In this document: positions 24,202 through 61,905 of the stretch, piece after piece
How the letters are laid out: every line of letters starts with the position of its first letter
Position numbering within the stretch: the stretch's first letter is position 1
NCBI GenBank assembly: GCA_963693365.1
Contig: CAVNZM010000017.1
Coordinates: 2,657,527-2,721,526, forward strand
Reading direction: 5' to 3'
DNA from: Amoebidium appalachense
Lineage: Eukaryota; Protista; Ichthyosporea
Length of the DNA stretch: 64,000 nucleotides
Notes under the pieces: model-generated
Database searches by the model: none
The model's input: the letters and a program-made list of their open reading frames with translations, nothing else
What the model was told of the DNA's origin: nothing
Made by a program: the position numbers and the translations under genes

Positions 24202-24733
24202 ATGTATGTGTACATGTGTGGGTGTGTGTCTGTGTGTGTGTGTGTGCCGTAGCCAATCAGCAAGAGACCGGGAAATGCAACACAGCTCGGGCGGGTGGGT
24301 GGGGCTAAGTAGGGGCCGACGGGGAAACAAAGCTATAGCTACAATAAGACGAGTAGAACGAGTCGCCGCCTACATACCATAGGCGGCTCCCTGGTGGCCA
24401 CAGACTGATAATCATTGTTGGAACACTATTCCAACCAATCAGTTGGCCTAAATACACCTCTAAATAGAGCTTGATGAATCAAGCGAGGTATTTAGATATG
24501 TTGTTGCTATCTGCGACCACATTCTTATTTTACAGAAATAATACACAAAGCTGGATAGCAGGAGTGGCCCGGCGAGTGATTTTCATCCAATCATTATTAA
24601 TAAAGGGGCGGGTGCTGTCCGTCCAATAGGAAGGCACGCATTCGCCAAGACCGGACACCGACCGGAAACACCACTTCTTCGGGGGCTAGGTCCGTGTGGG
24701 CCTGTGCCATCCCTTGCACCACCGGCCACATTA

Positions 24734-25331: not shown

Positions 25332-26084
25332 CCCCCCCCCCCCCCCCCCCCCCCGTATCTCTCTCTCCCTTGTTCCTGTGGGCACAGATATCTGTAGATC
25401 TGTGCACACCTGGCTCTCTTGCCTGATAAGAACTTATTGTGTTTTTATTTCTGTTTGCTCTCCTCTGTTTATCTGAGAGGTAGCGTGATTGGCTAGCCTC
25501 ACTCGTTGTCTTTCCTTTATTTCAAAATGGCCTAGTTTTGTTCTCAAAAGGATGGCTCGCCAACAGTCGCGAGCGAGTACATCTGTAGATTGTGTTGTGC
25601 ATTCCTGTCTGTTAATATATGTGTGTTGTGATTGGACAATAGATATATATGGAATTCGGTTTATTGCAAAGTGTCTTCACTTTGAGAGTGTCGACTGTTA
25701 GGAAATATATGTATTTAAATAAGTTTCTTTATAGAGACGAACATAAATATATATGTGAGTTAATAGTGACTAGATGTATAATTACTTAATTTATTTAAGT
25801 AAGAGTTTCTACACTTTAGTTTAATCGGAAGTTGGAATGCGTATGCTCTGTCGGAATGTGTTTTTCTATCTTCTGATAGAACCGATTGGTTCTCCCTCTT
25901 TAGTTGTGATAAGGTGATAAGTCGCAAGTACAAAAGGAACCGAGAGCACAATAAAGATTCAGTTGTTGTTTGAAATCTTTCAATGTCTCGTGAACAACTC
26001 CGATTGCCCTCTCATTAATGTGTTAGTCGTGTTTTACATGACACCTCTGTGCACTCTGCTCCCTTAGACCCGTAAAAAACAACA
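25145..26084. mobile_element. Solo LTR (940 bp) inserted in the DIRS RNase H
   Basis: Starts TGTTGG and ends CAACA; 5-bp TSD CTGCA at 25140-25144 and 26085-26089; removing it rejoins the two RNase H halves. Confidence 0.85.
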
Positions 26085-27292
26085 CTGCATGGCGGGGCTG
26101 CTGCTGCCCTTTTTGCGCACCGCGCCCAACGCGGCCTGGGCGTCTGACTGCCAGCGTACGCGCTGGCGTTGGATTTGGGCCTGCATTTCGGGCCTGCGGT
26201 AGGCCTTGAGTAGGCCCTTGCACTCCGCCACTGCAGCCGCCCGCGGTGCATCGCTATCCGCCCAACGACCGAAAGCCTCCACAACCTGCGTGGTTGGTAG
26301 GCCCAACTGTAGGACTGCCCCCGGGCCCCACCCGTGTGAGGTGGCAGCATCTGTGATGAGAGTGGCCGTGATAGGCTCAGGCCAGAATTCCGTGCGGGGA
26401 AGCCGACCTATAATAATACCCATGGTTTTACCGATAATGCGTAGCTGCCGACCCGTTAACCGCACAAAGCTACGCCAGTTCCCGCCGCGTAGAGCACCAT
26501 ACACCGGCCGGACAACCGTGAGTAGGTGAGGCACCGCCGCACGCAAACTAACAACCAACCCTAGCCATCTAGCCACCTGCTTCTTTTCCACCCACCGCCG
26601 TCCTTTGCGCGCCTTAGCCATTAAAGAACGTGTTTCCCCCGATAATTTTTCCAAAGACGCCACTGTGGGAGACAAATACCCTTCCTCCAAACTTATGTGG
26701 ATGCCCAAATGGTCGAGGACACTCACTGGGTCCCAATGACCCTTATTCGGATGCTTCTTAAGGCTGGTGACTTTCAATTTCTGCTCCACCACCCCGCATG
26801 TGTCGAGTGCCCGTGCCGCCTGTTCGAAGATGGCCCAGTCATCGAGGAAAACCAACGAACGGATGCCGCGTGCACGTAACCGACGCGTGAACTCGCGCAT
26901 AAGGCGCATGAAAAAGTAGGGACTGAGGGAGTCACCGAAGGGAAGCACCGTGTACTGGTAGAGTTGTCCCCCCACACGATTTTGGAAATACTTGCGGAAC
27001 CGGGGTTGAATGGCTAATGCAAAATAGTATCCGTCTTCGAGGTCGAAACTGAAAGCGTGGTCACCCGGCTGCGCGAGCGCCGCAAGTCGCTGAGGGTTTC
27101 GTACTTGACACCACGTTCGACGGCACGTATTCATTCACAGGACGCGTATCAATAATGAGCCGGACGTTTCTGTTGGGCTTCCGCAGCCCAAAAGACGTTG
27201 AAACACCATTTTGCGCTCTCAGGCACTGTCTCGAGGGCCCCCTTACTCACTAACCGTTCAACTTCCACCACCGCTTCTGCCTCTGAAACTTC
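26085..27292 (-). pseudogene. DIRS reverse transcriptase/RNase H (frameshifted, interrupted)
   Basis: ORF 26064-27134 with DLEDGYY, LPFG, FLDD and TDAA motifs; upstream frames give GLRKPNRNVRLIIDTRPVN. Confidence 0.85.
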
Positions 27293-30200
27293 TGTTGGAG
27301 TACACTGGTACTCCCGGCTAGCAATGTCTGTTAGAGAAAGTTTCTGAGCAATTGAATAACTGTTTCAACACTCACTCGAGTGCATAGAGCTTTTGTTTAC
27401 GGTCATATTCATATATGGTAGTTATATGTTTGAGCCAAAACTGTACCAATGACGAGCTTCACTAGCAACGTGCTAATTGTGCTCTCTTTTCGGCTATTCC
27501 CGGTTCAGATGATGTCATGTCTATATTTGCCACAGGATTCTATTCTTAGAGTGGTAGTGTGCTTTATTCCCGGATATTCTCAGAATATTTTTAGTTGTGT
27601 GAAGCAAGATTTACGTTTAACTGCAATTGGTGTGTTAAACACGTTTATTTGTGTGCTTTAGTGCAAGTTAACTAGCCACTCAACGTGCACAGTTAACCTT
27701 TATATCTTTAACGACTTGTTTTCATTGTGCTCTCTTTTCGGCCATGCTGTACATGGCCCACCACCAGGGTGCACACGAGGCCACCATGAGGTGGCCAACG
27801 ACTATATAAAGCAGTGCCTCCCATGTCACAAACATGGGAAGCAGAACGTTTGATTTACACTTTTCTACTGTCGTTTCCAGTGCACAAAACACATAGACTA
27901 GTTACCCATCATACACGACACTATGTCTGACAACTTACAGTTGCAGCAACTAGTCCAACTACTGGAGCAGAGGTTGGCCTCACAAGATGCAATCATTTCT
28001 GACTTACAGAAGGAACAACGTGCACTAGAACTAGCTTCTATGAACACAATGTCCAACAGGGTTATGGGCCCCTCACGTAATGATTCCATCAAGTTCAAGG
28101 TCGACATCCCTCTCTTCACTGGCATTGATAATGATTCAGGCACGGACTACCACACATGGGCCGAAACCATGTATGTCCAGCTTTCTGGTGCTGGTCTTCT
28201 CCACACCATCGCGCCCAGTACGGAGCACCCGGCTACCCGTGAACAGGTCGACACTGCCCGTTCCTACCTGTGGCAAGCACTCTCGGTTGACGTGCGTTGT
28301 ATCCTAGGGTTAACACGCACCACCACACCTGCGGAGATATGGTCGGCCCTATCTGCCCACTACCTGGAGCAATCTGAGGCCAATCAGTACGACCTTATCG
28401 GGCTGTACATGAATTCTACGCCTGAACCTACGGACACCGCGACGAAATACGCCATGAAACTCCGCGGCTACGTGCGGCGCCTGGCCGATTACGGCACACA
28501 AATTGGTGATGCTCAAGTGCTGACCAAGCTCACCAACGACCTCGGCAAGGTGCCTTACTACGAAATGCCTGTAATTGCCTACAAGATGACACCCAAGCCT
28601 ACCGTGATGGGCCTCCTCCAACAGCTACGGGCATATGAGACCAGCCACCCACGTGCACGTGTGACTACCAGCTCCGGGCCGGCCGCCTTCACCACACGGG
28701 CTCCTCAACCTGTCATCTGCCACGGCTGCGGCAAACCAGGCCACATCAAGTCTCAGTGCCCCAACGGCAACGGCCAACACAGCAACTCTGGCAACAACCG
28801 TGCCAGCACCTACCCCAAGGGTTCCTGCGTCAACCACCCACTGTCTACCAGTCACACTACCGCCATGTGCAAGGGGGGCAACCGTGCCAACGGCCGCAAA
28901 CCTAAGGGTGGTCCCCTCCCGCCTGGGTCCTGCATCAACCACCCTGCCTCTACTACCCACACTACGGCACAGTGCAAGGGGGGGCTGCCGCTCCCCGGGC
29001 TTTCCTCATGTCTAGCAACGACTGTGGCACCAACAAGGTGCTCCTCGACTCTGGAGCCACTGACCATGTGTGCCCCCGGCCCGATGTGTTCATCAACATG
29101 CGTGCGGCGCCTTACTCCACGGTCCAAGTAGCCGACAAGGGTGCATGTGCAGTGCTTGGGGTGGGCGACGTGTTCTTTTCCAGCACCATCGACGGCGTTA
29201 CTGCGGTGCATCAGCTGACGGATGTACTCTACGTGCCCTCCATCCCCGACACTCTCATCAGTGTGTTCACGGCAACTACCAACGGTGTTTTACCCCGCTT
29301 TGACACCCGCGGCGGCGTTAAGTTGTGCTACGGCGATCAAATTCTGGCCACCGGCTCGGCTGTCGGCACCAAGCTGTACCACATGGCGGTGTCTCTTCTG
29401 CGCGCGGACACAACCCCGGACGCCCAAACCACCACTGCTCCGCGTATCCTCAAGGTTACTGCCGACCTCAACACGTGGCACTACCGTCTGGGCCATGCTG
29501 GCATTGACGCTGTACGTCATCAAGTCTGCAGGCCTGTTGGTGGGTGGCGGTGCCAAGTCTCCGGGTGTGTGTGAGCCCTGTGCCCTCGGCAAAGCCCACC
29601 GTGTTGCCTTCTCCGAATCAACTAGCCAAGCTCCCCGGGTCCTAGCCAAGGTTCACAGCGACATCAGCGGCCCCTTCCCTCCCGCGATCGGTGGTGCTCA
29701 GTACTTGGCGACGTTCCACGACGAATTCACCGGCCACACCACGGCCGTGCCCCTCGTCAAGAAGTCGGACACACTGGCTGCATATGTGACGTACCACAAG
29801 GCGGCGGTTACCCAACACGGTGTTCCCATGCAGGTGTTTCAGTCCGACGGGGGGGCGAGTACATGGGCACGGCCTTCGGGGACTACAACCGTGAGCATGG
29901 CATTCGCCATCAGATCACTACCACCGGCTCTCCTCAACAGAATGGGACTGCCGAACGACTGAACCGGACCCTCCTCGACATGGTTCGGGCACTCCTGCAG
30001 CAGTCCGGCCTTCCGGTGGGATTCTGGGCCGAGGCAGCTGTGACCGCGGCTTTTATACGCAACATGCTCCCGTCGCGAGCCACCGGCAGCCAATCGTCTC
30101 CCGCCCTGCTGTGGACCGGCATTCCTCCCGACTACAGCCGGCTCCGTGTCTGGGGCTCTCCCTGCTACGTCCATCAACAGGATACACCGAAACTGGCGCC

Positions 30201-33167
30201 TCGTGCCGTCAAGGGCATCTTCGTGGGCTACCCTCCTAACATCAAGGGCTACAAGGTCTGGATTCCAGCAGCACACAAGATGACCGTCAGCCGTGACGTG
30301 CAGTTCGACGAGGCTGCTATTCTGCACCCCCTCCGTGATGTCCCATCTGATTGGTCGACCGCACCGGCAATTCATCATTTTTTGGAGTCATCTGATTCGT
30401 CAAATCAGCCAGCCAATCACATCGTCCGGAATGATCAGCAATCTGATTCGTCTCGTCTGTCAGCCAATGGGACAGCGCCGAGTGATCAATTGGACATTCC
30501 GATCCTGCCCGAGCCTGCACATCGGCTCCCCCGGACGACCCGTAGTGGCGCTGTGTACAACGACCAACGTCGAGGCCCGACTGCCAACGTGGCTGCTGCT
30601 ACGGCCCCCCTTGCCCCCCAGGCTACGGCTCCTGCATCAACACCCATCAAGGCTTCCACCATTGTTGTCCCCAAGACTGTCCGGGCTGCACTCAAGAGTC
30701 CCCAGCGTCTGAAATGGGAGGAGGCTGCACACCGTGAGCTCAAGGCCCTGGAAGACAACGGCACCTTCACCCTTGTGCCCCGTCCAGAGGATGGCTCCAC
30801 TGTCATTCCGGTCGGCTGGGTCTTTACGGTCAAGCAGGACAACGTCGGCAACGTCACTGCTTTCAAGGCCCGGCTTGTGGCCCGGGGCAACTACCAGCAG
30901 CCTGGCCAGGACTATTTCGTCACCGAGTCACCTGTGGCTGCGCTGGCTACCATCCGGCTGGTTTTGGCTACCTCCGTGGCCCAAGGTCTGCCTCTGCGCC
31001 ACATCGACGTCAACACAGCATTCCTCAACGGCACCGTCAACGAGACCATCTACATTGAGCAGCCCCCTGGCTTCGTCAACCCCTCGGCCCCCCATGCTGT
31101 CGGCTTGCTCCACAAGGCGCTCTACGGCCTAAAACAGGCACCGCGCCAGTGGTATGAGGCCCTCCGTGACCATCTCCTCGACCAAGGCTTCATTGTGAGT
31201 GCTGCTGACCCGTGCCTGTTCATCAAGAATGCCGGGACCCCAACGTTTATTGCCCTTGCTGCCTACGTGGATGACTTCACCGTGACGGCCGCCACTGATG
31301 CGCTCATCGACGATTTTTTCACCAAGCTGGATGCTCGTTTCTCTGCCAAGGACCTGGGTCGTCCTACCCTGCTCATCGGGCACACTCTTACCTGGCTGGA
31401 GGACGGGTCTCTGCGTCTGGGCCATCGTCAACACATCATCGACTTGGCTGCCCGTTTTCGTCTCACCCACATGTCCGGCACCAAGACCCCCATCGTCCCG
31501 GGCCAGGCCAGTGAAAGCAACAAGACCCCAGCCTACAGCAAGAAGGAGGACTATGCCAGCCTGGTCGGTGCCCTGCTGTGGATTGCGCGTACCACCCGCC
31601 CCGACATTTCCCAGGCTCTGGGAGTCCTTACTCGACACATTCATGCGCCCACCGTCACCCACTGGACTATGGCTACCAGAGTTGTAAGCTACCTGCTGGC
31701 CACCATCGACCTGGGTATTGTCTACCGTCCCGGCCCCCCCAACCTTGTTGGCTACTCCGACTCCGACTACGCCGAGGACCGCGACACCCGGCGATCCACC
31801 ACGGGCTATGTCTTCTTCATCAACTCCTCCCCTGTGTCCTGGGTGTCTCGGCTCCAGTCCATCACCACCCACAGCTCCACTGAGGCTGAATTTGTGGCCA
31901 TGTCTGCTGCTACGAACGAGGCCCTATGGCTCAACTATGTGATGGACGACCTGGGCCTTAATCCTATCAATGAGCCCACCCCGGTGCCCATCCATGGGGA
32001 CAATGAGTCTGCCCGGGCCCTGCTGGACACCCTGGGGGTTAAGCCCAAGACCAAGCACATCGACGTCCGCTACTGCTCCATCAAGGAACATCACCTGCTG
32101 GGCAACATCACTGTGGTCCCGGTGGCTTCTGCTGACAACAAGGCCGACATGTTCACCAAGGCCCTGTCTGCCTCTTTCTTCACCAAGGCCGTGGGGATGC
32201 TCAACATGTGCTGAGCACCCGTCATCAACCAACTGCGCCCTCATACTTCAGGGGGGGGGGAGAGAGTTGCATCCGACTGTGCAACTACGTGTACCATACT
32301 AAAATTGAGTGGGGGAATCTTTATTGTCTGTATTTTGTGCACCTGAAGCACTCGAGCTCAGTTGCATTAATTCATACCACAATTATCCAATTGAGTAGGG
32401 GTGTTGGAGTACACTGGTACTCCCGGCTAGCAATGTCTGTTAGAGAAAGTTTCTGAGCAATTGAATAACTGTTTCAACACTCACTCGAGTGCATAGAGCT
32501 TTTGTTTACGGTCATATTCATATATGGTAGTTATATGTTTGAGCCAAAACTGTACCAATGACGAGCTTCACTAGCAACGTGCTAATTGTGCTTTCTTTTC
32601 GGCTATTCCCGGTTCAGATGATGTCATGTCTATATTTGCCACAGGATTCTATTCTTAGAGTGGTAGTGTGCTTTATTCCCGGATATTCTCAGAATATTTT
32701 TAGTTGTGTGAAGCAAGATTTACGTTTAACTGCAATTGGTGTGTTAAACACGTTTATTTGTGTGCTTTAGTGCAAGTTAACTAGCCACTCAACGTGCACA
32801 GTTAACTTTTATATCTTTAACGACTTGTTTTCATTGTGCTCTCTTTTCGGCCATGCTGTACATGGCCCACCACCAGGGTGCACACGAGGCCACCATGAGG
32901 TGGCCAACGACTATATAAAGCAGTGCCTCCCATGTCACAAACATGGGAAGCAGAACGTTTGATTTACACTTTTCTACTGTCGTTTCCAGTGCACAAAACA
33001 CATAGACTAGTTACCCATCATACACGACACTATGTCTGACAACTTACAGTTGCAGCAACTAGTCCAACTACTGGAGCAGAGGTTGGCCTCACAAGATGCA
33101 ATCATTTCTGACTTACAGAAGGAACAACGTGCACTAGAACTAGCTTCTATGAACACAATGTCCAACA
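27293..33167 (+). mobile_element. Full-length Ty1/Copia LTR retrotransposon (Copia-1)
   Basis: 766-bp LTRs at 27293-28058 and 32402-33167 (TGTTGG...CCAACA, two differences seen by eye); copia-type PBS GGTTATGGGCCC after the 5' LTR; PPT GAGTAGGGG; domain order gag-PR-INT-RT-RH. Confidence 0.97.
27923..32214 (+). CDS. Copia gag-pol polyprotein with three frameshifts (~28980, ~29520, ~29850)
   Basis: CCHC knuckle CHGCGKPGHIKSQC; protease LLDSGATDH; WHYRLGH...CEPC; integrase VHSD/SDGG/QQNGTAER; RT KARLVARG, YGLKQAPR, YVDD; RNase H YSDSD, SSTEAE, KHIDVRY. Confidence 0.93.
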
Positions 33168-33170
33168 GGG

Positions 33171-34306
33171 TGTTGGAGTGCAGACTTACGCTCACTCCAC
33201 AATATGTGTATGTTAGCTTTACAATTGGTTCCGTGTACACAGACACACGCTGACACTCGATCACCACATGCACATCTGCATAGTTGAGGAATGTTGCCAA
33301 TTGTGTTTTGACTGCAAACGATTGGTTCACTGGTCCCAGAGATCTCTAAATGAAAGTAACCAATCCGATTAGCACCTGGCATCCGGATTACATTCCAGAC
33401 TGCTGCCCCACGGGTATATAAGCCACGTCTCTGCCAGGTGCAGACATGAAGTTCAGTCATGGAGTTCAGTCATGGAGTTCAGTCATGGAGTTCAGTCATG
33501 GAGTTAACACACTGAAAGCAGTAAAAAACGGGTCAGCGCCCAAGCGCGCCACGACGACCCTAGTCACAGCGGACTCTACTTCCAACAGGGTTATGGGCCC
33601 AGACACGACACCGCGGCCTCTAACTTCACGTCCCCTACGACGCCTTGAACGGAGGAGCCAGAAACCGACTTCTAGGCTGTACCCTACACCCGCGAGCGTA
33701 TTTCCGTGAAGTAGAGACTTTCGCTTCCACAAACTCCATCCGCAGCAGCCTGCGACATCAACGTCAAGTATTCCACTTCATTGGCGGGGCACGCACCACA
33801 GTGGAATGCACACCCCGGTCTACCCTGCAAGCAGCCACACTCACTCTCTCTTCTCTAGTGGTGTGTACACTTCTCCAATTGGGTAGGGGTGTTGGAGTGC
33901 AGACTTACGCTCACTCCACAATATGTGTATGTTAGCTTTACAATTGGTTCCGTGTACACAGACACACGCTGACACTCGATCACCACATGCACATCTGCAT
34001 AGTTGAGGAATGTTGCCAATTGTGTTTTGACTGCAAACGATTGGTTCACTGGTCCCAGAGATCTCTAAATGAAAGTAACCAATCCGATTAGCACCTGGCA
34101 TCCGGATTACATTCCAGACTGCTGCCCCACGGGTATATAAGCCACGTCTCTGCCAGGTGCAGACATGAAGTTCAGTCATGGAGTTCAGTCATGGAGTTCA
34201 GTCATGGAGTTCAGTCATGGAGTTAACACACTGAAAGCAGTAAAAAACGGGTCAGCGCCCAAGCGCGCCACGACGACCCTAGTCACAGCGGACTCTACTT
34301 CCAACA
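33171..34306 (+). mobile_element. TRIM (non-autonomous miniature LTR retrotransposon)
   Basis: Apparently identical 417-bp LTRs at 33171-33587 and 33890-34306; PBS GGTTATGGGCCCAG; PPT GGGTAGGGG; 302-bp internal region without retroelement genes. Confidence 0.95.
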
Positions 34307-34957
34307 ACTTCGCCGATATCCAGATAGCCACCTGCATCAAGAGGGGCAGGACGCGCACTCTTCCTTCTGGTGTGATGCCGTACTTAATCCAGAACAAAAC
34401 TTCTTTAGACGCACCCCCAAGCTCCCACTCATCTACACATGTGCACGAACTCTCTGATACAATGGCAGTTGGGATGCATCACTTGCATCTCCCATCCTGC
34501 CTTCGAAAAAATTGAGACACTACACCTAATAGCTGCAGCACTACGCGCGCTCGCAAACAGTTTACCTACAGCGCTACGCGCGCTCGTAGAACCTAACTAG
34601 AAAGGGCCGCAGCCCAGTTGCCCCCAGGCCGTGGGTGCAGCTCACCCCTACACAAATAGCTATCTATTTAGATTTACCCACCACTGCTAATTACGCTCCT
34701 GGACCACAACTGCTACCCGGGTGCCACGCCGCGCCAGCCGCCCTACCGAGCTAAGCCGAGCCTCCTGCCGTCTGTCGACCCTCTACAGCTAAGTAGGGGC
34801 TAACGGGGAAACAAAGCTAACCCACCTGTAGTCCGGATGATTCACATTCAAGAATCAATTTTGTGGCGCTTCTCAATTTTTATTCTGTGGTCAAAAAATA
34901 CATGTTACTTAAGCAAAAACTTAGTTTTGGTAGTCAAAAAAACGCCCATATAATTTT

Positions 34958-37900
34958 AAAGTGGTTGACTAAGCTATGAATCATACCTGACAAGCTAAAG
35001 TGTAACCTAAGTGTTTTTCTACCAATCAAAACATAACGAGTAATATAAATCTACTCAACGTATATTAGTGAGAGAGAAATATAATTATGTGAAAGGAAAC
35101 AAGAGAAGAAAGAAAGAGAAAAGAAAGAAGAAGAAAGAGGAAAATGAAAAGAAAGCAGGACAGAAAACACGAACATGAAAGCACAGTTATAACCGAAGAT
35201 ATTCATGTACACATAACATGTACACGTTTCTCCCTCACTGGGTAGACTCGTGTACCTATAATCAGTTGCTGTAATCGATATCTAAACACACGAATATAGC
35301 CGACACAACACGATTACAAGTACTCAAATACACTGGAGATCGATGTCATAATTTACGTACAAGGAGCACATCTCTTTCACTAAGTAAATGAATGAAAACA
35401 TAACACGAACTGAGAAGATCTTACAATATGTAAATACTACGTATTACAACATCCCCACTTAAGACTTTGAAGTTTGTGTTATCATATCCCCACTGAACTA
35501 GTGAAATCTCCCCACTTGAGAACAGAAACGGAAAAAAAAAAAAAAAATTAAAGTGTGGACTGTTCCCGGGGGGGGGGGGGGGGGGGGGGGGAGGGGAAGG
35601 GGGGGGGGAAGGGGGGGGGAAGGGGGGGGGGAGGGGGGGGGAAGGGGGGGGGAAGGAACCGGGGCAAAAACAACGAATATATATAACGTGTATAGTCGGG
35701 GTTTGATTAACTGGGTTTTAAACCAGTGAAAGATAGAGTAGAGTCATGGTACAGGTCAAACCTTATATATAAACCCTAAGTGGGCATACCCACAAAGGCA
35801 ATACATATGAAATAATGATTATGATAAAGTAAGTAGTAAACATGAGAAAATCACTCTTGAAGTAGGTCGGGTCAATCCACAATATCCGGTAAACAAAGTC
35901 GAGCACGATGGTGGACATGACTCGGGCCGGGGAGGGGTTTGGTGAGGATGTCAGCTAAGTTGTGGGCTGACTCAACGTAGTGGACAACCACGTCCCCACT
36001 TGCAATGTAGTCCTTGGTGTTGTGATACCGGACGGCAATGTGTTTGGTACGGTGCTTGATGCCGGTGGAGTTGACGATAGCAATGGTCGACTGGTTGTCA
36101 CAGTACACCGGAGTCGGAGCAAGCATGGGACAGCCGAGTTCCTTGAAGAGGTCACGGACCCAAGCAACTTCTTGGGTGCCAGCATTGAGAGCAATCAGCT
36201 CAGCTTCAGTGGTGCTGGTGGCCGTGATGGGCTGGAGCTTGGAGTACCAGATGATGGGCATACCAGCAAACTCGATAATGTAGCCGGTGGTAGACTTCTT
36301 GCTGTCGGCACAACCAGCAAAGTCAGCATCCGTGTAGCATTCGAGTATGGGGGACTGGGTGGCCGAGTACTTGTAGTCAATGCCAAGGTCAATGGTGCCG
36401 AGCAGGTACCGGGCCACACGACGGAGAAGGTCCCAGTGAGTCTTGCCGGGGTTGGTGCTGAACCGACCAAGGAAGCCGATGGCATAGGCAATGTCGGGAC
36501 GTGTGCACCGTGCCACCCAGAGGAGACGGCCGAGTAACTCACGGTAGGGCACGGTGAACGGTTGGGGGGGGCAGTCAGCCAGGGAGACGGTGGTGCCTGC
36601 AGGGATGGGGGTAGACTTGGACTTGGCATCGGTGAGGTTGAAGTCGTGGATGATATCCATGATGTAAGACCTCTGGTGCATGTGGAGGTGATGGGGATCA
36701 GAGTGATTAAAATCAACACCGAGCATACGGTCAAATGGACTCATACGACAGCTGGCCATCTTGCTGATGTGGGCAGCCAGGTCACTGGCAGCAGTAGAAC
36801 CCCGGGTGTTGGTGATGGTGGAGTCGTCGACGTAGTTACCAGCCCGAACCACATCGTTGTTGGGGAAGAACCGGAGGTAGATGCACGGGTCGGTCTTAGT
36901 ACGGGTCAGGCCATGGGCAAGAAGAATGCCGTCGAGGAAGTCGTACCAAGCCTTGGAGGCTTGCTTGAGGCCGTACAGGGCTTTCTTGAGTCTCCAGACC
37001 TTGCCAAGTGTGGCCATGGTGATGAATCCCGGGGGTTGTTTCATGTAGATGGTCTCGGTGAGTGGGCTGTTGAGAAAGGCCGTAGACACGTCGAGTTGAT
37101 GGATGTCATGACCTTCAACAACGGCCAGAGCGAGGATGGCACGGAGAGCAGCCGGACGGATGACAGGGCTCTCAATCAACTCATAGTCAACACCGTATTG
37201 CTGACTGAAGCCTTGAGCAACACCACGTGCCTTGATCTTGGTGTCACCAGCCGAGTTGAGAGTTTTCTCGGAGACAATCCACTTGAAGCCGACGATGTTA
37301 GCACCAGGGGGAGGGTCAACAAGTTCAAAGATGTCTTTGTCGACGAAGGCTTGATACTCAGCAGTCAGGGCTGACTTGACCTGGTCACCATTGGGTCCGG
37401 AACACAGTTGACGGACAAGTTTGGGTAGTTGGTCGATGTTGATGGGGGGACCGGGGGGGACTGGGAGGGTGGTGGTGGCTTGAAGTCCAACCTTGCCCTG
37501 TAGACGGGCAGAACGACGGGGTGCAGGAACCGGGGGAGGTGGAGACGGTGGGGGGGGAACTTGGAAGTTCGGAAGTGCAGGGGGGGGCAACCTCCGGGCT
37601 GGACGGGGCCGAGTGGAAGTTGTCGGGGGAGCCGGGTCGGATGGGTGTGACGTTGCCAGGGGCAGGATGAGGATCGGCAGGCTGGACGGGCACGGGGGCA
37701 GGGGGGGCCGGTGGGGGGGGGTGTCGGGGGAACTACGATGGCAGGAGGGGGGCCAGAGTACACCAGACAAACATCATCTTCAGTGTCAACTGTGGGGGGT
37801 GGTGTGGTCGAGGTAGCAGTGGTGTCGGGGGTCGGAAGTGGTGATGGAATGTCGGACGGGAGATAAGCTGATTCGTCGAAAATCACATCACGGAAGAGGC

Positions 37901-40900
37901 CGACACGATGGGTGGTGGGATTGAAGATCCGGTGGCAGTGTGATTGAAGATCATAGCCGATATACATGCCGAGTTTGACGGTGGGGGCCAGCTTGTTCCG
38001 TTTAGAGGCTGGCACGTGAGTGTAGGCAGGGCAACCGAACACTTTGAGCTCGGAGATGTCGGGCGTGACACCGTAGAAAACCTCGAATGGTGTACGACCA
38101 TTGGCAGTCGTGGACGGGGTGACGTTGATGATGTAGGCGGCATGTTGGAGGGCCTCAGCCCACAGTTTGAGGGACAGAGACTGATCTTGGACTTGATGGA
38201 GGAGGCAACGGACAATCTCTTGGAGGGACCGCATACGACGTTCAACATAGCCGTTCAGTTGAGGGCAGTCCGAGTCCACCGGAGCATAGCTGGCCTTGAT
38301 GCCCTGGGAGAGGCAAAAAGCACGGGTAGCCTTGGAGGTGAACTCAGAGCCGGAGTCGAAGTGGTAGACACCAACTTTGGAGGGGGCATGGGTGGCAACG
38401 AGGTTGGTGTGAGCTGTGAGAATGTCCAGGGTGGTGGTACGGTCGGCCATCGGGTAGATCTTGACGAGTCCAGAGGCACGGCAGACAGTGACGAGAGCAA
38501 CCTGGGAACCTCCGTACGATGTTGTGGTAGGCTCAAAAAAATCCCAATGCCATTCATGACCGGGGATGTTGGAGTGAGGACGGTCACCCTTGAACGGAGC
38601 CTTGGTGGTTTTACCCATAATGCAGCCATGACAATCAGGAACATCACAGTCGAGGACAGAGGAGGGGAGACCAATAACAAGGTCGTGTTTCACCATGTCC
38701 TTGATGCTGGTCATAGCACGGTGCCCCAGACGATGGTGCCAGATGGATGGGTTAACACTGGTAGTGGCAGCCAGAGCCACAGGACGAGTGGGTGGTTGAA
38801 TGGTGTAGTCCTTGAAGTAATACAGACCGTTGTGTAGACGGAGGTTGACGAGATGACGGCCGGTGAGTCGGTCGAAGAGGAATGACGGAGTGGAGGCATC
38901 GTTCAAATCACCCTTGATGTATTCGGCAGCAGCTTGGGATGTTGAAATGAGGAAGGCTTGGCCAGACGGGGTGTAGTAGGCTTCAATGGTAAGGGTGGCA
39001 GTGCCATGGTCGGTGGTGGTGTTGATGACGATATGGCCGGTGTGAGTGGCCAAGACGGGGGTGCCATTGAAGGCAGCAACGGGAGTCGGTGTCGGAAGGG
39101 GAGTGAGGTCATGGAAGAACTCACGGGTGGGGCAGACAGTCATGTTGCACCCGGAATCCCAGGCAGGGTCGGAGGACACGGGGACGGCTAGCATTGTATG
39201 CCGAGAAAGCAAAGGAGACAGATTTCTCACTGCCTTGACGGGAACGGTTGTGTCTGGACATACGGCATTTCGGCTCAGGGCAATCGATGATCGTGTGATC
39301 AGGCTCGTGGCAGTAGGAGCATTCTTTCACGGACGGGGTGTTAGAACGAGCCGGGGAATCAGAACGACGGGAACCCGAGAAACGGGAACGACTGGGGGAA
39401 CGAGACGTGGACCGGAAGGCAGGCCGGTGGGGGGAACGGGATCGGGTGTGCTGACGGGAGAGACGAGTTCGGAGGTCCGTACCAGGGGTACGGTCAAGTC
39501 TGTTGCGTAAGTCACGGCGAGGAAGATCACGGGGGGGAGCACTGGCATTTAATGCCATGCTGGACTTGGAGGCACGGTGGGCACGGTTGCTCCGGAGTTG
39601 CATCTTGAGGTCTTGACGTAACTCGATGCCCTTGACGTGGTTGTGGAGGGACTCGAAGTCGGGGAATAGCTTATCACCGAAGTGATAGTCTTCGATAAGA
39701 CGGTTGAACTCAGGGGTGAGGTCGTCTCTGGTGGTGAGTTCATTGAAGAACTTCTCAGCTAGACGAGTGAAGTGAATGGACTCATCTTGGAGAGACTGGA
39801 GCTGGTTTACGATGGTCTGCAGACGGCTCAGGTAGGTGGTGAATGATTCACCGGGCTGAAGGGCACAGGCATCCCACTGACGGTGAAGGATGCGGATCTG
39901 ATCGGGTTTGCCTTGGAGATAGTGTTGACGGAATTTCCACATGGCCCGTTCAGGGTCCATGCCAATACGGTACTGGGCAACGGTGGTGAGGACGGAAGGG
40001 TCGATGTTCTGTATCATATGGAGCAGGAGGCAATTGCGGGCCTCCTTGAGTTCCGCGGTGGTGCCGTAGCCATAGAAGGGGGGTTCACCGTCAACCGCGA
40101 CGGTGGTAGGGGGGACGTAGTTGTCAGCAAGTACAACATCCACGAGTCGGACACCTTTAGTGCCGGTCATCATGCCGAGAAAAATGATTTCCCATTGAAA
40201 ATAGGTGGTTTTGCTATCGGGACCAGTCTTCCCTTCACCTTTCCACATGGTGATTTTGTTTACGCCAGTTTTGTTTGGATCCATGATTGAAAAACGAGCG
40301 CTAGTTCTAGATGTGTGTAGGGAGCGTGCAAAAGGGCTGCATAACCTGTTAAATTGTATAAGTATTTGGGATGTAAGCAGAGACACAGTGGTGCAGTGTG
40401 AAAACACCACAGACACACACAACAACAAAACACGGAACGATCGGAGCAGTGTACACAACAGACATCAATGTTTAGACACGACTGAACTCAATTTATTTTG
40501 ATCTCGAATAAATACCTGAAATTCCCTTAAGTTAAATCCATACATGATTTCCGACCAGTCGGAAATCAGATCTATGTCTAAAATAACCAATCACAGTTAA
40601 CTGATTATTTCCCGGATAGATCCGGAGACACAGGAACGCACACCATAGGTCACAGCTATAAGAAAGAAATGAGGTGAAGAGTAACGAGGAAAGAGGTGAT
40701 GTTTCTAACCTATCATCGGCTACAAAGACTCAGACATTTTCTGACTAAGTCCACTGATTGGATATAGTACGGCAACACACAAAACAAAAGTGGTTGACTA
40801 AGCTATGAATCATACCTGACAAGCTAAAGTGTAACCTAAGTGTTTTTCTACCAATCAAAACATAACGAGTAATATAAATCTACTCAACGTATATTAGTGA

Positions 40901-41280
40901 GAGAGAAATATAATTATGTGAAAGGAAACAAGAGAAGAAAGAAAGAGAAAAGAAAGAAGAAGAAAGAGGAAAATGAAAAGAAAGCAGGACAGAAAACACG
41001 AACATGAAAGCACAGTTATAACCGAAGATATTCATGTACACATAACATGTACACGTTTCTCCCTCACTGGGTAGACTCGTGTACCTATAATCAGTTGCTG
41101 TAATCGATATCTAAACACACGAATATAGCCGACACAACACGATTACAAGTACTCAAATACACTGGAGATCGATGTCATAATTTACGTACAAGGAGCACAT
41201 CTCTTTCACTAAGTAAATGAATGAAAACATAACACGAACTGAGAAGATCTTACAATATGTAAATACTACGTATTACAACA
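34958..41280 (-). mobile_element. Ty1/Copia LTR retrotransposon (Copia-2) with truncated 3' LTR
   Basis: 5' LTR 41280-40347 (TGTTG...TTAACA) followed by PBS-like GGTTATGCAGCCC; PPT AAGTGGGGA next to 35451; only 35451-34958 of the 3' LTR remains (matches 41280-40787); no TSD. Confidence 0.92.
35872..40284 (-). CDS. Copia-2 gag-pol polyprotein with frameshifts at ~39180 and ~37720
   Basis: Gag MDPNKTG... with CSYCHEPDHTIIDC; PR WDSGC; WHHRLGH..CHGC; integrase FDSGSEF and QLNGYVER; RT KARGVAQG, YGLKQAS, YVDD; RH YTDAD, STTEAE, KHIAVRY. Confidence 0.93.
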
Positions 41281-42307
41281 TATATTTATATATAAGTCGT
41301 CCTTATCCTGGTGATATGAGATGCCATGACCTGAGAGATAATTCAGAATATTGTATTATTCTTATCAGTGCCAAGCTTCGTCATCTTCTTCTTAGAATAT
41401 TCCTGATTCTTCTTAGTGTAACTTTTAGTGTAACCTTCTTGCACGTTGGTGCGTACTCAATTTCTATTGGCTATCGTAATCTATGCCCCGAGTATATAAA
41501 TCGCCACATGCATTCAGTCATTCAGTCCAGTCCAGTCAACTTGATCAGTCAGTCCGAGTCACAGCCAGCCAAGTTCCTCTACCCCCATGGCCAAGTACAG
41601 CAGCTTCAAGACGTCACTGCAAGGCTTCAAGGAGAAGTGTCTTCAACATGCAACAGCGAGACTCTGGCTATGACTATAACACTGTGACTGTACACTTCTA
41701 CATGTTAGACTACAGTACTCTATTCTTTTCTTTCGTTCTCACAAGTTATAATTCGAATTTACATGCATAGATAAATCGAATATAAATAGATATACTCTCA
41801 CTTCTGGTCATGAAATACAGCTAAGGAAAAATGGGTATAAGAGTTCACACTCTTATCCAGCCACGTTGATAGAGTGTATTGCGCACACTCACGCGGCTAG
41901 CCTTTCCTAGATAGCTGAATAAACGTTCCAAGTAAGGCTAATAACTAACTAATAATTGCTCGCCCTTGCTTCTGCTTCTTTGCATATCTGCATGTTTACT
42001 AGGTGCCACACATAACACAAACACGTACATTTTAACCTCTTGACGCGCATGAGAACATACACAGCACACACAAATATGTGGTTATACTATGCCCAGCACT
42101 CTTATCACACGCTTCCACAAACACGCTTCCACACACCTCCCATAAACAGTAGCACAAAACATAACCACGTGCCAGTGTAGCCATGTGCGTGAGCAGTGGG
42201 CTCTAGCCATAAGACAGACAAAGGGCCCCGCCTTTAGGACGGCCGGGTGTGTGTGTGTGTACATGTATGTGTGTGTGTGTGCCTGTGTGTGTGTTTGCGT
42301 GCGTGTG

Positions 42308-43311: not shown

Positions 43312-45292
43312 GTGGTACTCCTAACCCCATACATTGGATGTACACTGGATGTCGTGCACTCCTCCGGATTACGACATCATAAGATGGTCTTGCTGCACCC
43401 CCTCGAAAGACTGTCTTACGACGTCGGAAATAACTGTCGAATGGATGGGTTTACAATATCCATACGAATGTCCTCGACAACCATTAGTTGTCGTAAACCC
43501 CACCTGTGTACGACATCGTAACATGCTCTTACGACACCCCACGTGAGACTGTCGCTAGACGTCTGAAACCCCGCCGTATGGATTGGTTTACAGTATCCAT
43601 TTGAAGGTCCACGATACACTGTGTATGTCGTAAACACCTGCACATTACGACATCGTAAGATGATATTATGGTGGTACTCCTAACCCCATACATTGGATGT
43701 ACACTGGATGTCGTGCACACCTCCGGATTACGACATCATAAGATGGTCTTGCTGCACCCCTCTCGGAAGACAGTCCTACGACGTTGGAAATAACTGTCGT
43801 ATGGATGGGTTTAAAATATCCATATGAATGTCCTCGACAACCATTAGTTGTCGTAAACCCCACCTGAGTCAGACATCGTAACATGCTCTTACGACACCCC
43901 ACGTGAGACTGTCACTAGACGTCTGAAACCCCGCCGGATGGATTGGTTTACAGTATCCATTTGAAGGTCCACGACAGGCTGTGTATGTCGTAAACACCTG
44001 CACATTACGACATCGTAAGATGATATTATGGTGGTACTCCTAACCCCATACATTGGATGTACACTGGATGTCGTGCACTCCTCCGGATTACGACATCATA
44101 AGATGGTCTTGCTGCACCCCCTCGGAAGACTGTCTTACGACGTCGGAAATAACTGTCGAATGGATGGGTTTACAATATCCATATGAATGTCCTCGACAAC
44201 CATTAGTTGTCGTAAACCCCACCTGTGTACGACATCGTAACATGCTCTTACGACACCCCACGTGAGACTGTCACTAGACGTCTGAAACCCCGCCGGATGG
44301 ATTGGTTTACAGTATCCATATGAAGGCCCACGATACACTGTGTATGTCGTAAAGACCTGCACATTACGACATCGTAAGATGATATTATGGTGGTACTCCT
44401 AACCCCATACATTGGATGTACACTGGATGTCGTGCACACCTCCGGATTACGACATCATAAGATGGTCTTGCTGCACCCCCTCGAAAGACTGTCTTACGAC
44501 GTCGGAAATAACTGTCGAATGGATGGGTTTACAATATCCATATGAATGTCCTCGACAACCATTAGTTGTCGTAAACCCCACCTGTGTACGACATCGTAAC
44601 ATGCTCTTACGACACCCCACGTGAGACTGTCAATAGACGTCTGAAACCCCGCCGGATGGATTGGTTTACAGTATCCATATGAAGGCCCACGATACACTGT
44701 GTATGTCGTAAAGACCTGCACATTACGACATCGTAAGATGATATTATGGTGGTACTCCTAACCCCATACATTGGATGTACACTGGATGTCGTGCACACCT
44801 CCGGATTACGACATCATAAGATGGTCTTGCTGCACCCCCTCGAAAGACTGTCTTACGACGTCGGAAATAACTGTCGAATGGATGGGTTTACAATATCCAT
44901 ATGAATGTCCTCGACAACCATTAGTTGTCGTAAACCCCACCTGAGTACGACATCGTAACATGCTCTTACGACACCCCACGTGAGACTGTCAATAGACGTC
45001 TGAAACCCCGCCGGATGGATTGGTTTACAGTATCCATTTGAAGGTCCACGATACACTGTGTATGTCGTAAACACCTGCACATTACGACATCGTAAGATGA
45101 TATTATGGTGGTACTCCTAACCCCATACATTGGATGTACACTGTATGTCGTGCACACCTCCGGATTACGACATCATAAGATGGTCTTGCTGCACCCCCTC
45201 GGAAGACTGTCTTAAGACATCGGAAACAACTGTCGAATGGATGGGTTTACAATATCCATATGAGTGTCCTCGACAACCATTAGTTGTCGTAA
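43312..45292. repeat. 359-bp tandem repeat, ~5.5 copies
   Basis: Unit start GTGGTACTCCTAACCCCATAC at 43312, 43671, 44031, 44390, 44749 and 45108. Confidence 0.97.
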
Positions 45293-45899
45293 AGACGTCT
45301 GAAAACCCCGCCTGATGGATGGGTTTACCGTATCGATAGGAAGGTCATGGCAGGCCATGTTGAAATCATATAAATTAGCACTGGTAGTAAAAAACCAAGC
45401 TGTGTACATTTTAATTGAGCATCTGGAGGGGCTGCTGTATAGCTATATGATACCGGGCCACTATCATTAGGCAGGTATGTGTAATATAGATGTTAATAAT
45501 TTTCTTGTAAAATTGTAAATAATAACTGGTGGCACGGCCTTCTGGATACATATAACAATGGATGTTTTATGGGGGTTTCGTGGGAATGCTGGCATACTTG
45601 AGAGAGAATACATAAGAGAACGAATAGGATGCTGATTCGGAGGGGGTACAAGAACTAGCAGAGTTTGTGGGTGCCTGGAACGGCAGGGGATTATAGTAGT
45701 GGGATAATTATATTGCGGAAAGCTGAACAGTGTAGCGTATAGACGGCGGTGAACATGCCGGTATGAAGTCCATATGCGTGTACATGTATTAAAAGTAAAT
45801 CAAGAGCGGTGCCAAAAGAACTTATTTAATAAACAAAAAAAACAAAACTGAAGATAATCTGATAGAAAACACCTGACATTTACAAACCATGCACTCAAT

Positions 45900-46248: not shown

Positions 46249-46306
46249 CTATCCCGAGCACACAAACCCAAACCAAATATATATATATATAAATTCTCCA
46301 TGTTTC

Positions 46307-47461
46307 TAGCGCATTTTGCCTAATATGGACGTACAACGGTTAATGACTTTCCCCACAGAAATGGGGAGACAGTCCGACCGGTTTTGTTAGACCCCCCACA
46401 CAGAGACACTGCCTAATGCAAATTTTGGTTGTGCTCCCATCAATCCCCTGCACGTTATTAACTGTTGAATCCCCCCCTTTTCCCTATGTATTATAGCGCA
46501 TTTTGCCTAATATGGACGTACAACGGTTAGTAACTTTCCCCACAGAAATGGGGAGACAGTCCGACCGGTTTTGTTAGAACCCCCACACAGAGACACTGCC
46601 TAATGCAAAGTTTGGTTGTCCTCCCATCAATCCCCTGCACGTTATTAACTGTTGAATCCCTCCCTTTTCCCTATGTATTATAGCGCATTTTGCCTAATAT
46701 GGACGTACAACGGTTAATAACTTTCCCCACAGAAATGGGGAGACAGTCCGACCGGTTTTTTTAGACCCCCCACACAGAGACACTGCCTAATGCAAAGTTT
46801 GGTTGTCCTCCCATCAATCCCCTGCACGTTATTAACTGTTGAATCCCCCCCTTTTCCCTATGTATTATAGCGCATTTTGCCTAATATGGACGTACAACGG
46901 TTAATAACTTTCCCCACAGAAATGGGGAGACAGTCCGGCCGGTTTTGTTAGACCCCCCACACAGAGACACTGCCCTAAAATGCAAAGTTTGGTTGTGCTC
47001 CCATCAAACCCCTGCACGTTATTAATCGTCGAATCCCCCCCTTTTCCACACGTATTATAGCGCATTTTGCCTAATATGGACGTACAACGGTTAATAACTT
47101 TCCCCACAGAAATGGGGAGACAGTCCGACCGGTTTTGTTAGCCCCCCACACAGAGACACTGCCCTAAAATGCAAAGTTTGGCTGTGCTCCCATCAAACCC
47201 CTGCACGTTATTAATCGTTGAATCCCCCCCTTTTCCCCACGTATTATAGCGCATTTTGCCTAATATGGACGTACAACGGTTAATAACTTTCCCCACAGAA
47301 ATGGGGAGACAGTCCGACCGGTTTTGTTAGCCCCCCACACAGAGACACTGCCCTAAAATGCAAAGTTTGGTTGTGCTCCCATCAAACCCCTGCACGTTAT
47401 TAACTGTTGAACCCCCCCCTTTTCCCCACGTATTATAGCGCATTTTGCCTAATATGGACGT
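46307..47461. repeat. 187-190-bp tandem repeat, ~6 copies
   Basis: TAGCGCATTTTGCCTAATATGGACG at 46307, 46494, 46681, 46868, 47058, 47247 and 47436. Confidence 0.97.
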
Positions 47462-48609: not shown

Positions 48610-51090
48610 CTTGTAGCATAGAACCCCCCTTGTAGCATAGTATATGTACATATGTTACCTAGACATTATTGGGTTTTCAATAACTACCCACAGAACAGCC
48701 TCTAGCACGAGACATTTACCACAAAGTTTATGGGGGGGATGGTAAATGTGCCCCTGGAGTACGAGGGTCACACGAAAAAAACACAACGTTGTAGCTCGTA
48801 TAGAACCCCCCTTGTAGCATAGTATATGTCCATGTGTTACCTCAGTAGGCATTTTTGGTTTTTTCAATAACTACCAACAGAACAGCCTCTAGCACGAGAA
48901 ATTTACCACAACGTTTATGGGGGGGATGGGGAATGTGCCCCTGGAGTACGAGGGTCACACAAAAAAAAACACAACGTTGTAGCTCGTATAGAACCCCCCT
49001 TAAAGCATAGAATATGTACATATGTTACCTAGACATTATTGGTTTTTCAATAACTACCCACAGAATAGCCTCTAGCACGAGAAATTTACCACAAAGTTTG
49101 TGGGGGGGATGGTGAATGTGCCCCTGGAGTACGAGGGTCACACGAAAAAAACACAAAGTTGTAGCTCGTATAGAACCCCCCTTGTAGCATAGTATATGTC
49201 CATGTGTTACCTAGACATTTTTGGTTTTTTCAATAACTACCCACAGAACAGCTTCTAGCACGAGAAATTTACCACACAGTTTATGGGGGGGATGGGGAAT
49301 GTGCCCCCCTGGAGTACGAGGGTCACACGAAAAAAACACAACGTTGTAGCTCGAATAGAACCCCCCTTGTAGCATAGTATATGTACATGTGTTGCTTACA
49401 CATTATTGGTTTTTTCAATAACTACCCACAGAACAGCTTCTAGCACGAGAAATTTACCACACAGTTTATGGGGGGGATGGGGAATGTGCCCCTGGAGTAC
49501 GAGGGTCACACGAAAAAAACACAACGTTGTAGCTCGAATAGAACCCCCCTTGTAGCATAGTATATGTACATGCGTTGCTTACGCATTATTGGTTTTTTCA
49601 ATAACTACCCACAGAACAGCTTCTAGCACGAGAAAGTTACCACACAGTGTATGGGGGGGATGGGGAATGTGCCCCTGGAGTACGAGGGTCACACGAAAAA
49701 AACACAACGTTGTAGCTCGAATAGAACCCCCCTTGTAGCATAGTATATGTACATGCGTTGCTTACACATTATTGGTTTTTTCAATAACTACCCACAGAAC
49801 AGCTTCTAGCACGAGAAAGTTACCACACAGTTTATGGGGGGGATGGGGAATGTGCCCCTGGAGTGCGAGGGTCACACGAAAAAAACACAACGTTGTAGCT
49901 CGAATAGAACCCCCCTCGTAGCATAGTATATGTACATGTGTTGCTTACACATTAAGTTGGTTTTTTCAATAACTACCCACAGAACAGCTTCTAGCACGAG
50001 AAATTTACCACACAGTTTATGGGGGGGATGGGGAATGTGCCCCTGGAGTACGAGGGTCACACAAAAAAAAACACAACGTTGTAGCTCGTATAGAACCCCC
50101 CTTAAAGCATAGAATATGTACATATGTTACCTAGACATTATTGGTTTTTCAATAACTACCCACAGAATAGCCTCTAGCACGAGAAATTTACCACAAAGTT
50201 TGTGGGGGGGATGGTGAATGTGCCCCTGGAGTACGAGGGTCACACGAAAAAAAAAACAAAGTTGTAGCTCGTATAGAACCCCCCTTGTAGCATAGTATAT
50301 GTCCATGTGTTACCTAGACATTTTTGGTTTTTTCAATAACTACCCACAGAACAGCTTCTAGCACGAGAAATTTACCACACAGTTTATGGGGGGGATGGGG
50401 AATGTGCCCCCCTGGAGTACGAGGGTCACACGAAAAAAACACAACGTTGTAGCTCGAATAGAACCCCCCTTGTAGCATAGTATATGTACATGTGTTGCTT
50501 ACACATTATTGGTTTTTTCAATAACTACCCACAGAACAGCTTCTAGCACGAGAAATTTACCACACAGTTTATGGGGGGGATGGGGAATGTGCCCCTGGAG
50601 TACGAGGGTCACACGAAAAAAACACAACGTTGTAGCTCGAATAGAACCCCCCTTGTAGCATAGTATATGTACATGCGTTGCTTACACATTATTGGTTTTT
50701 TCAATAACTACCCACAGAACAGCTTCTAGCACGAGAAAGTTACCACACAGTTTATGGGGGGGATGGGGAATGTGCCCCTGGAGTGCGAGGGTCACACGAA
50801 AAAAACACAACGTTGTAGCTCGTATAGAACCCCCCTTGTAGCATAGTATATGTACATAATATGTTACTTGCACATTATTGGTTTTTTCAATAACTACCCA
50901 CAGAACAGCTTCTGGAACGAGAAATTTACCACAAAGTTTATGGGGGGGATGGTGAGTGTGCCTCTGGAGTACGAGGGTCACCCGAAAAAAACACAACATT
51001 GTAGCCCGGATTGAAACCCCCTTTGTACCATGTACATCATATATCATGCAGCATGTGTTACTTTCGCGTTATTGGTTTCCTAGCACGAGA
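48610..51090. repeat. ~183-bp tandem repeat, ~13 copies
   Basis: TAGAACCCCCCTTGTAGCATAG recurs about every 182-187 bp from 48619 to ~51010. Confidence 0.97.
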
Positions 51091-58665: not shown

Positions 58666-58707
<42 letters not shown>

Positions 58708-58900
58708 GACACGCCACAAGCAGTTGGCACTGCGGGCCAGCACAGAACAAAGAGGCACACCGTGTGTACACCGTAAGACCGTAATGTATTGTCCCAAACA
58801 CTCCACCGGGTGAGTGAGGGAATCCGAGCGAATTCGTGTAGTGGGGGGGGGCCGGCCCCAGCCGCCACTGCAGAACATGACTCGTGCGATATACAAAGTG
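57234..58900 (-). CDS. Tyrosine recombinase, probably two exons (~58900-58772 and 58300-57234)
   Basis: Catalytic motifs LLRSGEF, SKTD, GHSLRIGGAT, LGRWASDAFMVYIR; the upstream exon gives a YR-like N-terminal SLTRWSVWDNTLRSY. Start codon uncertain. Confidence 0.88.
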
Positions 58901-58998
58901 GGAAGGGGGGAAGGGGGGGTGTCGGTGCCCCCCACAGCCCACACGCCAAGCCCAATACGAAGGCAAAGGAACAGGGGAGGGGGCTCGGCCCAGCCCCA

Positions 58999-61784: not shown

Positions 61785-61832
<48 letters not shown>

Positions 61833-61905
61833 CGTCCTGCACAGGAGGGCGCGCCTCCTGCCCTGCCTGTGCTGCAGGGCCATTGTCTGTTGGGTCTACT
61901 TCCAT
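60720..61905 (-). CDS. Ngaro ORF1 (gag-like) with poly-Q and a C-terminal Cys/His finger; one frameshift near 61390
   Basis: The MEVDPT... frame joins the frame with FALLDLLP, YQWAAIMRWEYAHR and CRGFN..C..C.YKH.C..C...H...C. Confidence 0.8.

Follow-up and report, generated by a model that had tools for sequence, protein, structure and literature searches.

A Copia and a TRIM-like retrotransposon joined tip to tip within one target-site duplication in Amoebidium appalachense

A 64,000-nucleotide stretch of the genome of the ichthyosporean Amoebidium appalachense (assembly GCA_963693365.1, contig CAVNZM010000017.1, positions 2,657,527 to 2,721,526 of the forward strand; "the window" hereafter) carries a composite insertion made of two complete long terminal repeat (LTR) retrotransposons: a Copia element and a short element that resembles the miniature retrotransposons with terminal repeats known as TRIMs. 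The two lie head to tail and have four complete LTRs, and the 7014-bp composite is bordered by a single 5-bp target-site duplication (TSD).

One insertion with four LTRs

The order of the parts, checked base by base, is ACTTC, Copia (27293-33167), GGG, TRIM-like element (33171-34306), ACTTC. A first-pass annotation, made from the letters alone, had described this anatomy and had stated that neither element has a TSD of its own; both statements are borne out. Copia is flanked by ACTTC and GGGTG, and the TRIM-like element by CAGGG and ACTTC, so that the duplication belongs to the composite; by computation, a 5-bp repeat is expected by chance about once in 1024. No target-site duplication is found at the inner joint, where GGG stands instead of ACTTC, and both inner termini (the CA of Copia and the TG of the TRIM-like element) are intact. 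Both 5' LTRs run into GGGTTATGGGCCC, while both 3' LTRs are preceded by GTAGGGG. The motif GGGT is found in two places: as the first four bases past a 5' LTR, and as the last three bases of the polypurine tract (PPT) followed by the first LTR base. Feature coordinates are given in Table 1.

Sequencing runs containing part of the window were used for comparison. Of 24 runs listed, 20 contain such a part, with a maximum of 0.78 of its sequence words in any one; all are contig sets, simplified so that rare forms are dropped, and no run is known to derive from the window's own strain. A contig of run X6 represents an empty site: position 27286 is joined to 34306, and 7019 bases (7014 + 5) are skipped (depth 398, short side 28 letters). 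In run X18, loose ends at the site have the same empty-site continuation. Because a site that lacks exactly 7014 + 5 bases exists in other runs, the composite is a single insertion event, and its structure is real as described. The empty-site contigs are probably paralogous copies of the multi-copy retroelement that hosts the insertion, but they still fix the target sequence.

We considered the possibility that the assembler had fused two unrelated repeats. Both families are high-copy, and for the window's own strain the joint is read from assembled sequence. However, the outer flanks rejoin into the empty site of other runs with a 5-bp duplication, an overlap of 4 bases would not suffice for a mis-join, and an independent short-read contig, described below, connects the same two ends. 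Misassembly is therefore extremely unlikely.

The host retroelement is decayed. It is a candidate DIRS-type element by its motifs, and its profile match is to RVT_1. No tyrosine recombinase was found in the flanks, either by Pfam or by tblastn with the other tyrosine recombinase-like frame of the window, and the host copy is decayed or truncated. Removal of the composite had been proposed to restore an open reverse transcriptase (RT) frame. This holds locally: 24 codons upstream and 47 codons downstream of the site can be read in the rejoined frame. A stop follows, however, and the RT-like text continues in another frame. A 32-base repeat (94% alike) at 24304-24335 and 34788-34819 brackets the host RT element, and a 27-base motif near that repeat recurs beside the element at 56.5 kb.

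Table 1. Features of the composite insertion and of its host element (window coordinates).
Feature	Position	Strand	Evidence
Host element, downstream part: RT-RNase H, presumably DIRS type, decayed, multi-copy	26064..27287	-	Pfam RVT_1 3.6e-12; translation
Left target-site copy ACTTC	27288..27292	+	sequence; empty site in X6, X18
Copia 5' LTR, 766 bp, TGTTGG...CCAACA, holds the gag start codon (27923)	27293..28058	+	
Copia gag-protease-integrase-RT-RNase H coding region, Copia order, several frames as assembled	27923..32214	+	Pfam, translations
Copia primer-binding site GGGTTATGGGCCC of the half-tRNA type (antisense to the initiator tRNA-Met anticodon arm)	28059..28071	+	
Copia PPT region, ends GAGTAGGGG	32386..32401	+	
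Copia 3' LTR, 766 bp, differs twice from its 5' partner	32402..33167	+	
Spacer GGG at the LTR-LTR joint (CA-GGG-TG)	33168..33170	+	sequence; exact form not found in 4 runs compared
TRIM-like 5' LTR, 417 bp	33171..33587	+	
TRIM-like internal region, 302 bp; primer-binding site as in Copia over 13 bases; PPT region 20/23 bases identical	33588..33889	+	
TRIM-like 3' LTR, identical to its own 5' LTR	33890..34306	+	
Right target-site copy ACTTC	34307..34311	+	sequence
Upstream part of the host element, where the RT region starts; homology with further copies ends near 34820	34312..34820	-	loose ends 34818-34820

The two elements and their relationship

The left element has LTRs of the TG...CA form, a primer-binding site (PBS), a PPT, the Copia order of domains and a Copia-type RT. 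Pfam matches include Retrotran_gag_2, Pol_BBD, rve_3 (below cut-off), SH3_retrovirus and RVT_2; the RVT_2 match is strong (1.4e-53) and the integrase match weak (3e-05). The best database protein match of the RT is 44% identical. The two differences between the Copia LTRs both adjoin T runs. In the coding region, the four runs compared all differ from the window by short indels; the frame breaks are therefore either private to the window copy or consensus errors. The gag start codon lies inside the LTR, 136 bases short of its end, and the frame runs on through the PBS (27923-28071). Within 27293-30231, contig depth in run X6 is many times higher on the Copia LTR than on the internal region, and 28075 is connected to 30202 in a deletion form; these observations suggest the existence of more non-autonomous derivatives that use the Copia LTR.

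The first 12 letters of the PBS, from the first G on, coincide with the end of an initiator tRNA-Met (tRNAiMet) Northern probe printed in PMC5238962. On this match, the site is of the half-tRNA, anticodon-arm kind, the priming type used by copia and Ty5 (PMC5371799). All three Gs that follow the LTR can pair with tRNAiMet, and the number kept on the cDNA would be set by the site at which the tRNA is cut.

The right element has terminal direct repeats, a PBS, a PPT and a short internal region; its longest ATG-started frame is 112 amino acids, and it is probably non-coding. We call it "TRIM-like" because its size, 1136 bp, is above the 1-kb limit of PMC13570524, although PMC4717578 includes elements of 1172-1449 bp among the TRIMs. 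Its internal region showed no likeness to that of Copia beyond the PBS and PPT. The LTR tips of the two elements have 9 (5' end) and 7 (3' end) bases in common, and 16 of the first 25 and 14 of the last 25 LTR bases are identical; between the LTR bodies, local alignment scores do not exceed 26. Both elements were present in each of the six runs compared. From these sequence features, the TRIM-like element likely depends on Copia for its movement, in a helper-parasite relationship.

Additional features of the TRIM-like element were detected. A shorter form that lacks 83 internal bases (33628-33712) is found in 4/4 runs compared, and the LTR contains approximately four copies of a 13-base unit (33447-33506). 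In run X18, the summed contig depth on Copia and the TRIM-like element is 20 to 200 times that of the host element. Depth is not copy number, and the excess hints either at a large burst or at abundant free cDNA in the sample.

The LTR-LTR joint and the origin of the dimer

We consider it fairly probable that the dimer was produced by end-joining of two finished cDNAs, with its outer ends integrated together by the Copia integrase. The TRIM-like RNA would be reverse-transcribed in Copia particles, given that it has the same primer site, PPT and tips; helper and parasite would thus have been co-packaged. The U5 end of Copia would be joined to the U3 end of the TRIM-like element, as in the joint of a 2-LTR circle. 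The spacer Gs would be leftovers of an unprocessed PBS side (GGG after the 5' LTRs), of the PPT side (GGGG before the 3' LTRs) or of both, and flush or mis-repaired joints would arise where ends had been trimmed. The integrase would then take the U3 end of Copia and the U5 end of the TRIM-like element, whose tips are nearly alike. Such mixed outer ends are plausible because Ty1 integrase inserts foreign DNA ending in TG...CA, with a 5-bp TSD (PMC2939329). The joining activity would probably be host non-homologous end-joining (NHEJ) or alternative end-joining; an end-to-end jump of the RT is an alternative.

The joint was compared with other runs on the segment 33142-33197, using, for X18, a listing of the 8 longest of 157 contigs and, for the other runs, all contigs of X6 (4/4), X11 (8/8) and X1 (4/4). 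Flush TRIM-TRIM, TRIM-to-Copia and inverted joints match this segment too little to be seen by the comparison. Ordinary PPT-LTR and LTR-PBS forms dominate at the joint in all the runs compared. In X18, head-to-tail LTR-LTR joints recur with spacers of variable length (about 0, 1 and 3 letters). One contig, record 13 (51 letters, depth 47.4), leads from the Copia end to the TRIM start without mismatches and has three letters fewer than the window; its simplest fit is probably a flush CA/TG joint. A 56-letter contig (depth 117.7) reads TRIM end-GTG-TRIM start, and another (depth 59.8) TRIM end-C-TRIM start. The end point of record 13 would also imply a flush TRIM-TRIM joint. On the depth scale of this run, scattered joints have values of 6-14 and pieces that resemble lone copies have values of about 35-62, so that the LTR-LTR joints are above the former and near the latter; again, depth is not copy number. 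Recurrence with variable spacers favors end-joining over a GGGT template switch. Short indels where two LTRs meet are regarded as a mark of NHEJ acting on linear cDNA (PMC9324142). Of the two joining modes envisaged by the first-pass annotation, ligation has thus become the likelier, while the template switch is weakened.

Several observations weigh against this interpretation. The exact CA-GGG-TG joint was found in none of the four runs (in X18, among the contigs listed). The two sides of record 13 have 28 and 23 letters, below the 31 letters per side that we require of a bridging contig. The position of its 3-letter gap is also ambiguous, as a CA-G-GTTGG form fits the left end of the contig as well; the flush reading, unlike that form, requires that no other flank begin with the same three letters, the chance of which goes from 0.46 to 0.07 for 50 to 170 flanks. 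Furthermore, record 13 may be the window locus rather than a second event, since an exact piece of the window's host copy (116 bp at 27095-27210, 82 bases away from the insertion) is present in X18 at depth 48.8. Lastly, the TRIM-TRIM joints of X18 may stem from free 2-LTR circles instead of integrated dimers.

Some of these observations admit another explanation: the dimer is real but its true joint is flush, the GGG being a consensus artefact caused by the abundant LTR-PBS and PPT-LTR reads, and record 13 is this very locus. The mechanism would then be blunt ligation, and the interpretation of the Gs as leftovers would fall. Absence of the GGG form from the four runs is in agreement with this view, as are the similar depths of the shorter joint and of the exact host-copy piece, and the fact that the window differs from the four runs by short indels in G runs, like a noisy long-read consensus. 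On the other hand, roughly a dozen of the flank positions listed and two Copia positions do not show the window's letter in X18 contigs, which fits another strain, though contigs drop rare alleles. In addition, three other repeat pairs of the window agree at every base (over 417, 495 and 277 bases), so that the assembly is not generally noisy, and a 3-letter spacer, GTG, is also present in X18. Altogether, we regard a flush joint at this locus as unlikely.

A different origin for the GGG would be mis-priming or template switching by the RT. The Copia plus strand, with its 3' end in CA-GGGT, would anneal at the PPT/U3 border of the TRIM minus strand and prime plus-strand synthesis there; strong-stop synthesis and the second strand transfer would complete the whole TRIM-like element, both templates being required in one particle. 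The occurrence of GGGT both past the 5' LTR and across the PPT/LTR border makes such annealing conceivable. Moreover, composites of foreign DNA and Ty1 in yeast have been put down to erroneous priming and strand switching (PMC2939329), and complex insertions within a single TSD have been suggested to arise by template switching (PMC1950507). Yet mis-priming predicts GGG only, while the X18 joints are three letters shorter or contain C or GTG, and it would have to assume a stop of the plus strand 4 bases into the primer copy. We consider this route improbable.

Homologous recombination between LTRs is excluded because the LTR bodies are unrelated, and a double insertion as defined in PMC5932611 is excluded because the joint lacks ACTTC. 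A sequential history is conceivable in which a three-LTR TRIM tandem received Copia at a PPT/LTR border (GGGTG), and a deletion between the 9-base tips TGTTGGAGT later removed the first TRIM unit together with the left target copy. The right flank of Copia, GGGTG, is indeed the exact PPT/LTR border, the tips do share 9 bases, and plants commonly contain TRIM arrays with three LTRs (PMC4717578). Nevertheless, three events would be needed, one of them exact to the base, in elements whose LTR pairs have 0 and 2 differences, and the flush, C and GTG joints would not be explained. Such a history seems very unlikely.

If the dimer was formed by end-joining, the joining may have occurred at either of two times, which cannot be told apart because both give the same sequence. 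One is before integration, as a linear dimer, a possibility that we entertain tentatively. The other, only slightly less likely, is just after integration: the complex held one end of each cDNA, and the host repaired the two inner ends. Two-donor concerted integration and hybrid element insertion form the background for the idea of a complex that holds one end of each cDNA. The earlier proposal that two cDNAs entered as one molecule thus stands insofar as a single integration event involved two complete cDNAs, as indicated by the single TSD and the empty site. A broader speculation, which we find rather unlikely, is that particles routinely carry helper and parasite cDNAs and the integrase pairs one end of each, as a counterpart of hybrid element insertion. 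Were this true, four-LTR dimers with LTR-LTR spacers of variable length would form repeatedly, and the families, orientations and spacers found in them would provide a genomic read-out of co-packaging and of the unprocessed cDNA ends that a half-tRNA-primed element produces.

Copying of the composite as a unit is not expected. Under the standard mechanism, the lack of a shared R region in its outer LTRs speaks against a standing piggy-back mode, and the product is predicted to be one-off. The suggestion that TRIMs might be mobilized in that way is not supported: the outer LTRs are unrelated beyond the tips, and the ordinary forms prevail in the runs.

Other candidate joints were discarded. An X6 contig (loose end 33182) that seemed to combine the Copia end with a third LTR family carries 4 mismatches at positions that would be different in a PBS, and was classified as an LTR-PBS variant. 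Joints of X13 and X17 that go back from 32592 to 27495, as circles would, are explained by collapse of the LTRs in the contig graph. Eight scattered joints among those listed for X18, with depths of 6-14, were taken to be library chimeras. No matches to a degenerate pattern that covers the starts of the two LTRs were found in metagenome contigs or in viral contigs.

Known complex insertions and other elements of the window

The autonomous mover of a TRIM, and the meeting of both in one particle, are usually guessed from sequence likeness, and larger related elements were found for just 11 of 289 TRIM subfamilies (PMC4717578). Despite unrelated LTR bodies, a dimer under one TSD links the presumed helper and parasite physically to a single integration event. 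If such joints recur, the counts, orientation and spacers of Copia-TRIM, TRIM-Copia, TRIM-TRIM and Copia-Copia joints would serve to test co-packaging. The same counts would also test ligation before integration against two-donor integration, as well as the cut sites of the half-tRNA primer and the PPT.

Published complex insertions resemble the composite in part. Tandems with a shared LTR (Sabot and Schulman 2007, PMC1950507; Morales-Diaz 2025, PMC11899658; the tandem TRIM arrays, or TA-TRIMs, of the L3I2 type, PMC4717578) likewise place two elements' worth of sequence within one 5-bp TSD and are interpreted as single insertions. However, they have three LTRs with a shared middle one, alike outer LTRs and a single family, in contrast with the four LTRs and two unrelated families found here tip to tip. 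An inverted pair of maize TRIMs (PMC4717578) also lies in one TSD and apparently derives from two cDNAs, but its members are inverted, belong to a single family and lack an autonomous partner. Tandems that have an internal LTR in common are described in PMC13570524 too. The nearest published cases are this maize pair, the rare LTR-LTR junctions of Drosophila tandems discussed below, and TRIMs of sugar beet that carry an additional LTR of a different family.

Joints similar to ours, with intact CA and TG tips and a short variable spacer, are found in 2-LTR circles, both those of carrot Alex1 and Alex3 (PMC9324142) and retroviral ones. In a circle, however, one cDNA has closed on itself and is extrachromosomal, while here two different cDNAs are involved and the joint is fixed in a chromosome. 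Drosophila tandems (McGurk and Barbash 2018, PMC5932611) also contain complete head-to-tail elements, and some of their LTR-LTR junctions are left unexplained by unequal exchange; in the double insertions of that study the target site is kept in the joint, where we find GGG instead of ACTTC. Ty1 composites in yeast (Kiechle 2000, as cited in PMC2939329) likewise unite non-self DNA with retrotransposon sequence by Ty-dependent insertion, but they are experimental, mostly from yku70 mutants, and consist of partial Ty1 and plasmid DNA, whereas the composite is natural and contains two complete elements. With half-tRNAiMet-primed Ty1/Copia elements such as Drosophila copia and yeast Ty5 (PMC5371799), the Copia element shares an anticodon-arm PBS placed directly after the CA of the LTR; this likeness is by PBS, the best protein match being the 44% given above.

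Full-text literature searches found no four-LTR dimer of an autonomous element and a non-autonomous partner; most subscription papers were outside their scope, and this is weak evidence of absence. The available part of PMC12312487 contains nothing on LTR dimers. Known tandem LTR elements have either a shared LTR or the target site between them; the composite has neither and would represent a new form of complex LTR insertion. Software that looks for tandems of the shared-LTR kind or for repeats of a single family would likely report such a locus as two elements without TSDs.

Elsewhere in the window, 149 of 150 further frames scanned (out of about 250 candidates) had no Pfam match, and the remaining one had a low-complexity match to Atrophin-1 below cut-off. 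For two frames that resemble genes of the host organism, no homologue was found. A second, unrelated Copia occupies 34958-41281 on the minus strand. Its LTR-size repeats are identical over 495 bases, and it has gag, protease, integrase and RT matches; no clear 5-bp TSD or tRNA-type PBS was seen at its ends. Another minus-strand retroelement (56568-62186) has split direct repeats (56568-56700/57090-57223 and 56815-57091/61910-62186), a 628-amino acid RT-RNase H frame (RVT_1) and a 363-amino acid frame without Pfam match. The latter frame has a putative tyrosine recombinase-like motif, and the layout of the element is presumably Ngaro/PAT-like. Satellite arrays with periods near 360, 187 and 183 bases are found at 43312-45293, 46294-47461 and 48611-51078.

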